Origin: Candidatus Saccharimonadota bacterium
Lineage (GTDB): Bacteria > Pseudomonadota > Gammaproteobacteria > Enterobacterales > Enterobacteriaceae
Length of the DNA stretch: 32,000 nucleotides
Direction: 5' to 3'
Assembly (NCBI GenBank): GCA_049942965.1
Contig: CP188088.1
Span: 498,864 to 530,863 of the forward strand
Position numbers and translations under genes: made by a program. This document shows, one piece after another, positions 8,836 to 28,260 of the stretch. The notes under the pieces were generated by a model, which made no database searches, was not told the origin of the DNA, and saw nothing but the letters and a program-made list of their open reading frames with translations. Position 1 is the first letter of the stretch. Every line of letters begins with the position of its first letter.

Positions 8836-9432
8836 ATGATGAAAAAAAAAAATAGCAAAAAAATTCGAATTATTGGAGGAAATTTAAAAGGAAGTATATT
8901 ATTTACAAAAAAATTTATCAATGTAAAACCAACAACAAACTATATGAGAGAAACATTATTTAATTGGATACGTCCAAAAATAAATCAATCAAATTGTTTA
9001 GATTGTTTTTCAGGAACTGGTGCATTGTCAATAGAAGCTATTTCGCAAGGAGCAAATTCAGTAATAGCTCTAGAAAAAAATAACAAAAATGTTTTTCTAG
9101 CTAAAGAAAATTTAAAAAGATTAAAAATTTTTAAAAAAATTAAATTTGTTATTTGCAACACTTTAATTTGGCTAAAAAAAAAAAGAAATATAAATTTTAA
9201 CATAGCTTTTATTGATCCTCCATTTAAAAAAAAAATGGTAGAAAAAACAGCTTTTTTATTAGAAAAAAATTGTTTTCTTACAAAAAATTCAATTATTTAT
9301 ATTGAAATGGAAAATAATAAAAAAAAAATTATAGTTCCAAAAACATGGAAACTTAAAAAAAAAAAAATAAAAAATAATGTTTTATATTTAATTTATAATA
9401 AAATCAATAATTGTAATTCTATTGTTGATTAA
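8836..9432 (+). CDS. rsmD: 16S rRNA (guanine966-N2)-methyltransferase
   Basis: 198 aa, the same length as E. coli RsmD/YhhF. Carries IRIIGG, PTT...RETLFNW, the SAM motif LDCFSGTGALSIEA and the catalytic FIDPPF. It sits divergent from ftsY, as in E. coli. Confidence 0.85.
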   Translation: MMKKKNSKKIRIIGGNLKGSILFTKKFINVKPTTNYMRETLFNWIRPKINQSNCLDCFSGTGALSIEAISQGANSVIALEKNNKNVFLAKENLKRLKIFKKIKFVICNTLIWLKKKRNINFNIAFIDPPFKKKMVEKTAFLLEKNCFLTKNSIIYIEMENNKKKIIVPKTWKLKKKKIKNNVLYLIYNKINNCNSIVD

Positions 9433-10833: not shown

Positions 10834-11406
10834 TTATTTTTTTATTCTAGAAACATATTTAGAATTTCTAGTGTCAACTTTTACTAAGTCTCCTATAGAA
10901 ATAAATAACGGTACTTTTATTTTAATTCCATTTTCTAAAATAGCAATCTTTTCACTAGAACCAAATATATCACCTTTTTTCAATTGTTCGGTGTCAATTA
11001 TTTTTAATTTAATAAAATTACTTGGAGCAACTGATATAATTTTATTATTCCATAAAGTTACTAAATAAGAATTTTGTTCTATTAACCATTTCAACTCATT
11101 TTTTAAAATTTTTTTTTCAACTAAAAATTGATCAAAATTTTTTTTATTCATAAAATACCAAAAATGACCATCATTGTATAAATAAATTAAATCAATATCT
11201 ACAATATCTGCAAGTTCTAAAGAAGAAGAATCAGTAACTTTAAAAGTTTTATCTAATAACTGTCCAGTTAGCAATCTTCTCAGTTTTACACGAACAAATG
11301 CCTGTCCTTTTCCAGGTTTTATAAATTCACTAGATTCAATTAAATAAGGTTCTCCTTCAAAAATGACTTTTAATCCTATTTTAAAATTACTGTTTATAGA
11401 TTTCAT
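10834..11406 (-). CDS. efp: Elongation factor P
   Basis: From the ATG at 11406 the product is 190 aa: MKSINSNFKIGLKVIFEGEPYLIESSEFIKPGKGQAFVRVKLRRLLTG, colinear with E. coli EF-P (188 aa). The conserved modified-lysine loop KPGKG is present. The track start at 11499 is a non-homologous upstream extension. Confidence 0.95.
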   Translation of the reverse strand: MKSINSNFKIGLKVIFEGEPYLIESSEFIKPGKGQAFVRVKLRRLLTGQLLDKTFKVTDSSSLELADIVDIDLIYLYNDGHFWYFMNKKNFDQFLVEKKILKNELKWLIEQNSYLVTLWNNKIISVAPSNFIKLKIIDTEQLKKGDIFGSSEKIAILENGIKIKVPLFISIGDLVKVDTRNSKYVSRIKK

Positions 11407-11560
11407 TATTTTCTCAATACCAAAAAAATAATATAAAAATGTTCTATATATCTTAAATAAAAAAATCAATATGATTGTATTTCTTCTAACTCTAAACATT
11501 TTAAAATATAATAATAAAAACTATTTTTTACAAAAAACTAAAAAAATAAAATACAGAAAT

Positions 11561-15433: not shown

Positions 15434-15464
<31 letters not shown>

Positions 15465-17237: not shown

Positions 17238-17366
17238 TTATAAATAAGGATGACATTTAATTAGCCTTTTAATGATTAAAAAAAAATCTGTTAAAAAACC
17301 GTTTTTAATCAAAACTAATTTTGCATATTCTGAACATGAAGGATAAAAACAACATCTTTTTACCAT
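17238..17366 (-). CDS. yidD: Membrane protein insertion efficiency factor YidD, short form (42 aa from the ATG; homology continues upstream to 17414)
   Basis: Not in the ORF track. My hand translation is MVKRCCFYPSCSEYAKLVLIKNGFLTDFFLIIKRLIKCHPYL*. It matches the YidD core C(R/C)F.P(T/S)CS.Y......G...G......R...CHP. It lies between rnpA and yidC, as in E. coli. Confidence 0.7.
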   Translation of the reverse strand: MVKRCCFYPSCSEYAKLVLIKNGFLTDFFLIIKRLIKCHPYL

Positions 17367-17418
17367 AAAAAAATAACAAATTTTTGATAAAAAACTATTA
17401 AATAAATAAAAAATTTAA

Positions 17419-17775
17419 TTATTTTAATAGATAATTTGTTTTCCATAATTTTTTTAACAAATTCATTAACTTACTGTTATCTAAATCCATAGATGACTTC
17501 TTTATTATCAGAACGTGATCCATTGGAACTAATAATATATTTTGAGATATACGAAATGTTTCTCTAACTAATCTTTTTATTCTATTTCTCTCATTAGACT
17601 TTTTAATATTTTTTTTAGATATAATTATTCCAATTCTTGAATGTTGAAAAGTATCATTTTTTCTAGATAAAAGGACTAATTCTTTGAAAGCAATTCTTTT
17701 TGGATTTAAAAAAACATAGTTAAAATCTTTACGATTCAATAACCTCATTTGTTTTCTAAAACGACATCTATACAA
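17419..17775 (-). CDS. rnpA: RNase P protein component
   Basis: Carries MRLLNRKDFNYVF..., SRIGIIISKKNIKKSNERNRIKRLVRETFR (RNR motif) and LKKLW. The TTG at 17775 directly follows the rpmH stop and gives 118 aa, the E. coli-like length (119). The alternative ATG at 17748 gives 109 aa. Confidence 0.9.
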   Translation of the reverse strand: MYRCRFRKQMRLLNRKDFNYVFLNPKRIAFKELVLLSRKNDTFQHSRIGIIISKKNIKKSNERNRIKRLVRETFRISQNILLVPMDHVLIIKKSSMDLDNSKLMNLLKKLWKTNYLLK

Positions 17776-18210: not shown

Positions 18211-19583
18211 ATGGAGTCTTCTACCGTGTCGTTTTTGCTTTGGCAACGATGTCTTTTTAATTTACAAAAAAAATTAACACCTACAGAATTTAGTATGTGG
18301 ATACTTCCCTTAAAACCGAAATTGATTACTAATAATACATTAATACTATATGCTCCAAATCAATTTGTTTTTGATTGGATTAAAGAAAAATACATCGCTA
18401 ACCTAAATCAATCTATATTAGATACATTCGGAAAAAATAAACCAATACTACAAATTAAAATAAATAAAAAAAAAAAAAAAAAAAAAAATATAAAAAAACA
18501 AAAATTGTAGAATCTATAAATTTTAATATAAATAGTGTATCATTAACAAAATTGGAATCTAATAGTTCTTTTTTAAACAAAAAATATAAATTTGAAAATT
18601 TTATAGAAGGAAAATCTAATCAATTAGCGAAATCCACTGCATATCAAATAGCTAATAAAATAGGAAATCTTTATAATCCTTTATTTTTATATGGAAAAAC
18701 AGGTTTAGGAAAAACTCATTTATTACACGCAATAGGAAATACAATTGTATATAAAAAAAAAACGAATAAAGTAATATACATGCATTCAGAACAATTTGTT
18801 CAAAACATGGTAAAATCAATTCAAGAACATTCAATTGAAAAATTTAAAAAATTTTATCGATCAGTCAATGTTTTACTCATCGACGATATACAATTTTTTG
18901 CAAATAAAGAACATTCTCAAGAAGAATTTTTTCATACTTTAAATACTTTATTAGAAAGAAACCAGCAAATTATATTGACATCTGATAGATATCCTAAAGA
19001 AATAAATGGAGTGGAAGAGAGATTAAAATCAAGATTTGGATTAGGATTAACTATTTCAATCGATCCTCCCGAATTAGATACTAGAATTTCTATTCTGCTA
19101 AATAAAGCAAAAGAAAAAAACATTTTATTACCTATTGAAATAGCTTTATATATAGCAAAAAAATTAAAATCAAATATTCGTGATTTGGAAGGAGCATTAA
19201 ATAAGATTATAGCTCAATCAAAATTTATAAACCAATCTATTACTATAGATTTTGTTAGAGAAACATTAAAAGATCTATTTTCAATACAAGAAAAAATAAT
19301 CACAATGGAAAAAATACAAAAAACAGTAGCAAAATACTACGAAATTAAAGTTTCTGACTTGTTATCTAAAAAACGATCTAAATCAGTAGTTCAACCACGA
19401 CAGATAGCAATGACTATGTCAAAAAAATTAACTAATCATAGTTTTCCTGAAATTGGAAAAGCATTTGGAAATCGAGATCATACAACTGTTTTACATGCTT
19501 ATCGGAAAATAAATAAACTTCAAAAAGAAAAAAAAAACATGAAACAAGATCTATTAAATTTAATAAAAATGTTATCACTATGA
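18211..19583 (+). CDS. dnaA: Chromosomal replication initiator DnaA, interrupted by a frameshift in an A23 tract (pseudogene, sequencing error or slippage-rescued)
   Basis: The ORF at 18211-18510 is domain I (LWQRCL..L...L...[25 protein letters not shown]). The ORF at 18552-19583 carries the end of the linker, the AAA+ domain ([62 protein letters not shown]) and domain IV (RQIAM...[22 protein letters not shown]). A GTG at 18226 is a possible alternative start (MSFLLWQRC). Confidence 0.93.
18466..18488 (+). repeat. A23 homopolymer inside dnaA (frameshift site)
   Basis: I counted an uninterrupted A run from 18466 to 18488. The frame change between the two dnaA ORFs must occur within 18468-18507. 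Confidence 0.95.
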
Positions 19584-20697
19584 AATTTACTATACAAAAA
19601 GAAGAAATAATAAAATCACTTAAAAAAACTAATGTTTTATTAGGAACAAGAACAGATCTACCGATATTAAGTAATATTTTAGTTTTTATTAAAAAAAACT
19701 ACTTATTTCTTACATCTACTAACTTAGAAATTGAAATAACTACTAAAACATATTTGAAATTACCTTTCCAAGAAGGAAAAACAACCGTTCCTGGTAAAAA
19801 ATTTCTAGATATATGTCGCTCTTTTCCAAAAAAAGAAAACCTAATAATTTTCCAAAAAGAAAACAAAGTTATAATTACTTCGAAAAAAATTTTTTTTTCT
19901 TTAATTACATTACCTCATAAAAATTTTCCTATATTTCCTAATGAATTAAAAAAAAAAAAATTGATTTTTTTATTTCAGAAAAAATTTTAAAAAAAAGCAT
20001 AAAACATACAAATTTTTGTATGGCACATTCAGATGTTCGTCACTATTTAAATGGTACATTATTTGAAATAAAAAACAATTATATTAAAAGTACATCAACA
20101 GATGGATATAGAATTTCAACTTATAAAAAAAATATTAAAACAGAAAGTTTAAAAGAATCAATAATTATTCCTAGATTAACGATTAACGAATTGTTTAAAA
20201 TTTTACAAGATAAATCTTCTTTGATAAAAATATCTATTTTTGAAAAAAAAAATATTTGTGTTAAAACTAATGATTTAACTTTTACTAGTAAATTAGTAGA
20301 TGGAGAATTTCCAAACTGCAAAAATTTATTTGCAAAAGAAAAAAACAGAAAAAAAATAATAATAAACAAAACAAAATTCCAAGATGCATTACATAGAATT
20401 TCAATTTTATGTAATGAACAACTTAATGGAATTTCTTTGTTTATTGACGATAAATACATAAAAATCACAAGTCAAAATCAAAAAGATGAATTCGCAGAAG
20501 AAACAATAGAAATAATTAATCAAAATAATTTAAAAAAAATTAATATTTCTATAAATGTAAACTACATTTTAGATGTGATAAAGGTAATAGAAGGAACTTC
20601 GATCCAACTAATAATTAATCAAGATCTATCTAACATTCAAATTAAGGATTGTGAAGATAGCTCTTCTAAATATTTAATAATGTCTCTTCGAATATAA
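19580..20697 (+). CDS. dnaN: DNA polymerase III beta sliding clamp, interrupted by a frameshift in an A13 tract (pseudogene, sequencing error or slippage-rescued)
   Basis: The ORF at 19580-19990 begins MKFTIQKEE...LPILSNIL...[16 protein letters not shown]...FSLITLP..NFP. The ORF at 20020-20697 begins [15 protein letters not shown], then [17 protein letters not shown] and YLIMSLRI. Together they are colinear with E. coli DnaN (366 aa). The start overlaps the dnaA stop (ATGA at 19580-19583). Confidence 0.93.
19948..19960 (+). repeat. A13 homopolymer inside dnaN (frameshift site)
   Basis: I counted an uninterrupted A run from 19948 to 19960. The downstream frame opens at 19945, after the TGA at 19942-19944. 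The upstream frame closes at the TAA at 19988-19990. Confidence 0.95.
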
Positions 20698-25245: not shown

Positions 25246-26112
25246 TTATAAAATTGCAGAAGAACCTGAAATAATTTCAGTTAGTTCTTGAGTAATACTA
25301 GATTGACGTAATTTGTTATAAATTAATCTATATTCATGAATTGATTTTTTGCTGTTATCAGTAGCTGTTCTCATGGCTATCATACGAGCAGATAACTCGC
25401 TAGAAATATTTTCTAATATATTTTTATATATTTTAGATTCAATAAATTTATTCAAAATAACATCTAATAAAAAATAAAAATTTGGTTCATATAGATAACT
25501 CCAATTTTTTTTTTTTTTATTGTTATCTTTTAAAATAATCGGTAATAATTTAACAAACTTTGGATTATACATCATTGAATTTTCAAAGTGATTATAAGAA
25601 ATATAAATTTCATCAATTAATTTAGAATTATAAGAATTTAAAAATTTTTTAATAGAGCTTTTAATTTTAATAAAATCAAAACGTTCACTAATACTATCTG
25701 AATAAGAGACAATTTTATTCTGATAATTAGAAAAAAAATTTAATCCTTTCAAACCAAAAATAATTAATTCATAATCAATATTATTCTTTAGCAATCGTTT
25801 TATTTCAAATAGTATTTTTTTAAAAAGATTATTGTTCAAACTACCACACAAACCTCTATTTGTAGAAATAATGATTATTCCTACTTTTTTTATTTTTCTT
25901 TCTTCTAAATAAAGATGTTTACAACTTAAATTATTCTCTAAAACAACATTTTTAACAAGTTTCTTTATATTATTTAAATAATGAAAACTATCTATCATCT
26001 TAATTTTCATTTTTCTCATTTTAGAGACAGCAACCATTTCCATTGCTTGAGTAATTTTTTGAGTATTTAAAACAGCATTAATTTTATCTCTAATTTCTTT
26101 CGATGAAGACAT
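25246..26112 (-). CDS. atpG: F1 ATP synthase gamma subunit
   Basis: From the ATG at 26112 the product is 288 aa: MSSSKEIRDKINAVLNTQKITQAMEMVAVSKMRK ... QSSITQELTEIISGSSAIL, colinear with E. coli AtpG (287 aa). The track start at 26145 would overlap the atpA 3' end and adds non-homologous residues. Confidence 0.93.
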   Translation of the reverse strand: MSSSKEIRDKINAVLNTQKITQAMEMVAVSKMRKMKIKMIDSFHYLNNIKKLVKNVVLENNLSCKHLYLEERKIKKVGIIIISTNRGLCGSLNNNLFKKILFEIKRLLKNNIDYELIIFGLKGLNFFSNYQNKIVSYSDSISERFDFIKIKSSIKKFLNSYNSKLIDEIYISYNHFENSMMYNPKFVKLLPIILKDNNKKKKNWSYLYEPNFYFLLDVILNKFIESKIYKNILENISSELSARMIAMRTATDNSKKSIHEYRLIYNKLRQSSITQELTEIISGSSAIL

Positions 26113-27713: not shown

Positions 27714-28260
27714 TAGTTACTTTCTCTTTACTATTCAAAAAATTATTTATTTGTCTCATTTGAGCTAAAATTGAAAAATCAATTTTTTTACCATCAACTA
27801 ATATAATTAAACCACCGATAATAGATTTATCTATTTTTTGTTTTATTAAAATTTTTTTTAATGGATAATCTTTAACTAGTTTTTTAGTGATTTTATCTAG
27901 AATTAATGATTCTATTCGATAAACAGAAATTAAAAAAATCTCAATAATATTATCTTTCAAATTTTTAAGAATAGAAAATTGTTTTAATATCTCTGGAAGT
28001 AAAAGTAAACGATTGTTCTCTATAATTAGAGAAAGTAAATTTCTAACTTTTCTATCAATTTTATTATTTAATACAGAATAAAAAATTTCCAAAACATAAT
28101 TTTTTGAGAAAAAAATTTTTTTTTTTACTATATCTAATTCAATAACTTTAGAAAACAAATCTAATACATATTCCCAATATTCTATTGATCCATCTTTTAC
28201 AGCTATATTTAAAATAGCTTTCGAATAATTACGAGCAATTGTTATTCTATTTTGTAACAT
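27703..28260 (-). CDS. atpH: F1 ATP synthase delta subunit
   Basis: 185 aa. The N-terminal [16 protein letters not shown] resembles E. coli ITVARPYAKAAFDFAV, and GG..I.V....D.S is present near the C-terminus. It sits between atpF and atpA, and its 3' end overlaps the atpA start by 11 nt. Confidence 0.9.

Follow-up and report, generated by a model that had tools for sequence, protein, structure and literature searches.

A one-base frameshift in an A13 tract of dnaN, shared by Buchnera of Tetraneura aphids and probably corrected by slippage

The locus analyzed here raises the question of how a beta sliding clamp could be made from a gene that lacks a continuous reading frame. Within the window (i.e. 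the whole stretch of 32,000 nucleotides that was analyzed), dnaN is present, if no correction is assumed, as two open reading frames (ORFs), 19580-19990 and 19945/20020-20697, and no single uninterrupted frame spans the gene. By its best database matches, the window belongs to Buchnera aphidicola of a Tetraneura aphid, with T. akinire as the most likely host. Both dnaN pieces are 100% identical to XRY30687.1 and XRY30942.1 of Buchnera (Tetraneura akinire), the G+C content is ~23%, and the gene order is rpoC-purH-metE-...-efp-groEL-groES-mnmE-yidC-yidD-rnpA-rpmH-dnaA-dnaN-gyrB-atpCDGAHF(E)B-mnmG. The CP188088 assembly was obtained by Nanopore sequencing, followed by three rounds of Illumina polishing with 75-bp reads (PMC12243488). 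A protein search revealed no second dnaN from Tetraneura Buchnera. We consider it likely that dnaN is a functional, single-copy beta-clamp gene carrying a genuine one-base frameshift in a run of 13 A's, and that its frame is restored at this tract, mainly by RNA polymerase slippage.

The upstream part of the gene (19580..19947, forward strand) encodes clamp domain I and the start of the linker between domains I and II, that is residues 1-122 and two bases of the codon for Leu123. It was delimited by the ORF 19580-19990 (beginning with MKFT), by a match to PF00712 over residues 1-119 (E 3e-27) and by the alignment with E. coli beta, which starts at residue 1. The frame changes within the A13 tract (19948..19960, sense strand of the forward-oriented gene), which encodes Lys124-127. 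Read onwards without correction, the upstream frame yields an out-of-frame tail (19961..19990, forward strand), whose nine residues, LIFLFQKKF, show no homology, and terminates at TAA 19988-19990. The downstream part (19960..20697, forward strand; -1 frame relative to the upstream part) encodes the remaining linker and clamp domains II and III, as indicated by matches to PF02767 and PF02768 and by the alignment with E. coli beta through residue 366. Its first sense codon is ATT 19960-19962, the A of which belongs also to the A13 tract. This downstream frame is open from 19945 to its stop codon at 20695-20697, and it is shut immediately 5' of the tract by two adjacent stops, TAA 19939-19941 and TGA 19942-19944 (19939..19944, forward strand; IS, two stops, IKKKK). 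The third frame contains many stops across the dnaN region.

The frame change required is therefore -1 for a ribosome, or one additional A or two fewer A's for a transcript. With +1 A in the tract, a protein of 372 amino acids (aa) is obtained, and with -2 A one of 371 aa, both free of stops. Overlapping A AAA AAA heptamers are present in the zero frame of the tract, TT[A AAA AAA] AAA AAA. This anatomy agrees with a first-pass annotation of the window, which had located the break in the A13 run at 19948-19960 and the switch of homology within it, had read the same upstream ORF to LIFLFQKKF and TAA 19988-19990, had named TGA 19942-19944 as the codon closing the downstream frame (a TAA lies directly before it), and had predicted that one extra A or two fewer would repair the clamp.

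The repaired 372-aa protein contains all three Pfam clamp domains, in order and above cut-offs: the N-terminal domain (PF00712) at residues 1-119, the central domain (PF02767) at 132-246 and the C-terminal domain (PF02768) at 255-370. Residues 1-372 align with positions 1-366 of E. coli-type beta clamps (6amq, 1mmi and others; E 9e-71 to 9e-70), and in this alignment the residues at the repaired junction stand opposite VEFTLPQATMKRLIEATQFSMAHQDVRYYLNG. The end-to-end alignment bears out the earlier proposal that the downstream frame corresponds to E. coli beta. The four Lys codons (residues 124-127) lie in the linker that joins the N-terminal Pfam domain to the central one. Three ordered domains, a length of ~366-375 aa and collinearity with known clamps, as expected of a functional clamp, are found together only after the one-base correction. 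Runs of at least 13 A's are over-represented in the window (32 overlapping matches in 7 tracts versus a mean of 2.35 in dinucleotide-preserving shuffles, with 0/100 shuffles reaching 32), and thus the dnaN tract is in itself typical of the genome. What is specific to dnaN is that the homology switches frame exactly inside the tract.

The tract was then compared among 21 assemblies, comprising the window, a third-party metagenome-assembled genome (MAG) GCA_035718965.1 (L001; 99.06% nucleotide identity to the window over 12.7 kb), the complete genome of T. sorini Buchnera CP188087.1 (L002; 95.15% nucleotide identity), a contig of T. ulmi Buchnera (L044; 79% amino acid identity of the dnaN product) and 17 Logan contigs originating from 17 different sequencing runs (99.1-99.6% identity to the window; DNA or RNA libraries). 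A scan of a genome collection, in which each species is represented by one genome, gave one Tetraneura genome. Read at the assembly level, the 13-A run and the identical frame offset were present in 21/21 assemblies. In addition, when the 136-aa N-terminal fragment was used to query a protein database, only a cluster of close relatives was matched, with T. ulmi, T. sorini and T. akinire as its members. The run in T. ulmi is TTT-A13-TGAA, compared with TT-A13-TTGA in the others, i.e. it is offset by one base through substitutions at its boundaries. Exact conservation of the tract length as a sign of selection on length was considered and, given this offset, rejected; the conserved feature is the frame offset together with a long pure run, and not 13 identical positions.

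The alignment of the orthologs around the tract is gap-free, and the frameshift is therefore most parsimoniously explained as one ancestral event, which preceded the divergence between T. ulmi on one side and T. akinire and T. sorini on the other. It is also possible that one A was lost recurrently in each lineage, which would leave the conclusion unchanged. In the Buchnera of Eriosoma grossulariae, DnaN (370 aa) is intact and the Lys run is missing from this site, which places the origin of both the tract and the frameshift on the Tetraneura branch.

The evolutionary constraint acting on the two halves of the gene was estimated with the Nei-Gojobori method, after the same one-base correction had been applied to the orthologs. 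Four dnaN orthologs were collinear over 372 codons, with no further stop or indel. Between the window and T. ulmi, dN/dS was 0.178 for codons 1-127 (dS 0.43) and 0.171 for codons 128-372 (dS 0.60), while between the window and T. sorini the respective values were 0.21 and 0.17. Intact neighbouring genes, analyzed in the same way, gave 0.27 (mnmE), 0.41 (yidC), 0.28 (rpmH) and 0.08 (dnaA), so that the dN/dS of the dnaN halves (~0.17 versus T. ulmi) is equal to or below that of three of the four (mnmE, yidC and rpmH). Such low values in both halves indicate purifying selection throughout the time since the lineages split. Among the A or T runs of at least 9 in the region shared with T. ulmi, 7 of the 10 others are interrupted or shortened there and the dnaN run stays pure, which, for a small sample, agrees with the published idea that selection keeps the tracts on which rescue depends.

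These observations bear on two explanations under which no rescue would be needed. According to one of them, the break is an error of sequencing or assembly, the true tract being A14 (or A11) and dnaN being intact. Homopolymers are prone to such errors, the probable source assembly combines Nanopore data with short-read polishing (PMC12243488), and the A23 tract of the neighbouring dnaA differs among assemblies. The last point also means that assemblers do report differences that exist, and the same tract and break in every assembly, across four or more projects and several platforms, make an artefact very unlikely. Among the assemblies is the T. ulmi genome, which was curated manually and in which the frameshift was recognised by the authors, and it is improbable that all platforms would make one and the same systematic miscall (as judged from assemblies, not reads). 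Moreover, other long tracts of the window (A14 in purH, A13 and two A11 in rsmD, A14 in atpG and A11 in atpH) lie within unbroken ORFs in which domains are matched before as well as after the tract, which indicates that the assembly has no general one-base bias. We consequently leave this explanation almost no weight, in line with the first-pass annotation, which had not regarded the break as an artefact. The other explanation holds that dnaN is a pseudogene in early decay, i.e. that it is dead and clamp function has been lost or is supplied from elsewhere. The frame is formally broken, and these genomes carry 29-32 pseudogenes (PMC12243488). Nevertheless, neither a dN/dS near 1 nor accumulating lesions, as expected of a pseudogene, were found in the four lineages (dN/dS 0.17-0.21): there is a single lesion, common to lineages ~0.5 dS apart, and values of ~0.17 in both halves are incompatible with neutral evolution since the frameshift. 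The protein search, too, yielded no other dnaN from Tetraneura Buchnera that could take over its role. Decay, already doubted in the first-pass annotation, is thus extremely improbable.

In the slippage reading, the break, its conservation and the purifying selection on both halves are observed, and slippage and the level at which it would mainly occur are extrapolated from precedent. RNA polymerase would slip on the homopolymer and give rise to a mixed mRNA pool, which is the most likely route. Those mRNAs that had gained one A or lost two would be in frame and could be translated into the full-length clamp (372 aa with +1 A), and the remaining transcripts would give a truncated domain-I by-product. 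A further contribution may come from -1 slippage of tRNA-Lys on A AAA AAA at the ribosome, by which the same protein would be made. For poly(A) frameshifts in Buchnera and Blochmannia, 12-50% of corrected transcripts were reported (Tamas 2008, as summarised in PMC5009743; the summary is also given in PMC3017870 and bioRxiv 10.1101/2022.08.28.505559). In PMC6260861, slippage of E. coli RNA polymerase is reported to occur more readily on T than on A runs, and "even more" than 7 A's are said to be needed. By this measure the A13 run should exceed the A-run requirement of the E. coli polymerase, although the efficiency in Buchnera may differ.

Two further explanations accept the frameshift as genuine and differ in how the clamp would be obtained. 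It might be mainly the ribosome that restores the frame, through a -1 shift of tRNA-Lys on A AAA AAA, as at E. coli dnaX. The shift from the upstream to the downstream part is exactly -1, several overlapping X XXY YYZ heptamers are available in the zero frame, the product would be identical, and frameshifting on A runs is documented (PMC5009743). Unstimulated heptamers usually have a low shift efficiency. In the flanks of the tract, in the window and in T. ulmi, no convincing or conserved frameshift stimulator was found: the 48 nt upstream have no fold and no Shine-Dalgarno (SD)-like motif, and the 80 nt downstream have a fold z-score of -0.72 in the window, while T. ulmi has a different, non-homologous fold (z = -2.35). 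The absence of stimulatory elements weakens a programmed ribosomal mechanism and leaves polymerase slippage unaffected. Furthermore, the direct experiments in Buchnera and Blochmannia, as they are cited in PMC5009743, PMC3017870 and bioRxiv 10.1101/2022.08.28.505559, placed the heterogeneity at the transcript level. As no conserved stimulator is present, ribosomal frameshifting was ranked as a possible contributor rather than the main route, and we regard it as unlikely to predominate.

Alternatively, domain I and domains II-III could be separate polypeptides that assemble non-covalently, with translation of the second beginning either at some non-canonical codon close to the tract or through re-initiation downstream of TAA 19988. 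The break does sit in the inter-domain linker, automatic annotation gives two proteins (136 + 225/232/250 aa; 140 + 241 aa in T. ulmi), and in-frame ATT codons are present at 19945 and 19960. The start taken by mechanical ORF calling for the second piece, ATG 20020..20022 (forward strand), is the internal Met codon of CMAHSD, corresponding to the clamp motif (S/C)MAH(Q/S)D, and in the window no other ATG occurs ahead of residue 160. In T. ulmi this position is ATA (Ile) and the first ATG lies 12 codons further on, which confirms the earlier view that 20020 is not a true start. A conserved canonical start or ribosome-binding site for a second polypeptide was sought in the window and in T. ulmi, and none was found; with a start at the first ATG of T. 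ulmi, domain II would lose ~32 residues. A TAA sharing its A's with the first two positions of the tract closes the downstream frame in T. ulmi, so that no start is available before residue 125, and the out-of-frame tail of this species reads MNFLYQKKILKKI before its stop, conserving neither the sequence nor the length of the tail in the window. The starts picked by annotators differ (four in total) and are mostly non-canonical, and from the tract up to the first ATG the residues keep the conserved clamp pattern. The first-pass annotation had judged it unlikely that a ring would fold from a clamp broken here; a two-piece clamp is likewise disfavoured here, and we hold it to be highly improbable.

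One point against correction by slippage is unexplained, namely that in-frame revertants, expected often from replication slippage, have replaced the out-of-frame allele in no lineage. The ordinary answer is that the transcript pool of a long tract is mixed whatever the length of the template, in which case the fitness difference would be small, under strong drift. A different answer, which we consider unlikely, is that the out-of-frame state is itself selected as a dosage throttle on clamp output, with co-production of the domain-I fragment, a long and pure A run having been held one base off throughout the Tetraneura radiation. If this were true, clamp output would equal the slippage fraction and the replication capacity or titre of the symbiont would be limited by it, and the operon would hold another and younger case in the frameshifted dnaA tract (described below).

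Correction of dnaN by polymerase slippage would not be a new mechanism. The dnaN case is best seen as a member of a known endosymbiont class, in which poly(A) frameshifts are rescued by polymerase slippage. As this class is summarised from Tamas 2008 and Wernegreen 2010, the shared features are an AT-rich insect endosymbiont, one indel inside a long sense-strand A run, an otherwise intact gene, and a frameshift and pure tract kept between species under purifying selection; the genes studied experimentally were cell-wall genes and one gene of histidine biosynthesis, whereas the gene considered here is dnaN. Three features of the class are found in dnaN: the break lies inside an uninterrupted sense-strand A run (~9-10 or more), one indel repairs it, and it is accompanied by conservation and purifying selection. 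The class is further defined by genomic DNA of uniform out-of-frame length, for which the assemblies give A13 in 21/21, and by transcripts of varying tract length, with a substantial in-frame share and full-length protein, as would be predicted for dnaN. Frameshifted replication genes, dnaX and dnaG, were described in Blochmannia vafer (Williams and Wernegreen 2010, PMC3017870). In B. vafer and B. floridanus these are essential genes with a homopolymer frameshift common to both species and presumed to be corrected by slippage (PMC3017870). They differ from the present case in the genes and the symbiont concerned, and their correction was likewise inferred.

The closest counterpart is the orthologous gene of T. 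ulmi Buchnera, deposited as "Beta sliding clamp" CAL4041843.1, in which a 13-A run likewise carries this frameshift and the joined 372-aa translation equals the +1 A correction used here. It differs in sequence (79% amino acid identity) and in the one-base offset of the run, and it represents an annotation decision, not a described finding; the submitters' stated policy was to treat homopolymer frameshifts as functional (Manzano-Marin et al., bioRxiv 10.1101/2022.08.28.505559). RefSeq divides the same T. ulmi locus into proteins of 140 and 241 aa. Literature searches identified no paper on a dnaN frameshift in Buchnera and no transcript data for Tetraneura Buchnera. Among recoded genes, E. coli dnaX (A AAA AAG) resembles dnaN as a replication-protein gene with an A-rich slippery site and a shift in the -1 direction, and Thermus thermophilus dnaX as an example of A-run slippage at the polymerase level. 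The slippery heptamer and the -1 downstream ORF of the dnaX type are found in dnaN, and the stimulatory element is not. At dnaX, recoding yields a second, shorter functional product (gamma) with the aid of stimulatory elements, whereas in dnaN recoding would be needed for the sole functional product and stimulators are not evident.

Since dnaN is indispensable for replication, the conserved frameshift would imply a genus-wide reliance on error-prone homopolymer decoding, and the gene would illustrate cleanly, in nature, how indels that should be lethal are survived by extremely AT-rich genomes dominated by drift. In RefSeq and Prokka-style annotations, dnaN is divided between a "hypothetical protein" and a shortened clamp, and automatic annotation (pieces of 136 and 225-250 aa, and pseudogene counts) thus gives a wrong description of the locus in three or more public genomes. 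The tract, being conserved, also offers a handy and well-controlled target for distinguishing transcriptional from ribosomal slippage in an unculturable symbiont.

Homopolymers elsewhere in the window were also inspected. Within genes, the sense strand carries 38 A runs of at least 9, compared with 12 T runs of at least 9. In-frame sense-strand A runs are located in purH (A14, 2205-2218), rsmD (A11, 8842-8852; A11, 9174-9184; A13, 9355-9367) and, on the reverse strand, in atpG (A14, 25505-25518) and atpH (A11, 28116-28126). They would also be prone to slippage, giving heterogeneous products. An intergenic A26 run (15439-15464) between mnmE and yidC corresponds to A24 in the 99%-identical MAG, and long tracts therefore do change length between close relatives.

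The upstream neighbour, dnaA (18211-19583), is broken in an A23 tract (18466-18488) and needs +1 or -2 A. The MAG and four Logan contigs have A6GA14 at this site and an intact dnaA of 451-456 aa, one Logan contig (L058) has A6GA15 and a broken gene, and in T. sorini and T. ulmi the tract is interrupted and the gene (458 aa) is intact. Unlike that of dnaN, the break in dnaA looks like either a homopolymer of wrongly determined length or a hypervariable state of very recent origin. Several short Logan contigs among L046-L051, L053, L055, L057 and L059 begin in the dnaA poly(A) tract or at most ~100 nt downstream of it, and assembly graphs seem to break there; the dnaN A13 run is crossed unchanged in all of these contigs.

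Two other genes of the window deserve mention. On the reverse strand, yidD (~17238-17440) appears to be frameshifted or truncated, with a frame change adjoining a T7 run: the conserved C-terminal part is a 42-aa ORF from ATG 17366, and the N-terminal part (KLSIKIIKFFIYLIVFYQKF...) lies in another frame. In T. ulmi yidD is intact (69 aa), and the annotation of the MAG contains no yidD. In the mechanically called ORF of efp (10834-11499, reverse strand; 221 aa), ~35 residues precede the match to the Pfam domain EFP_N, and the true start probably lies further downstream.
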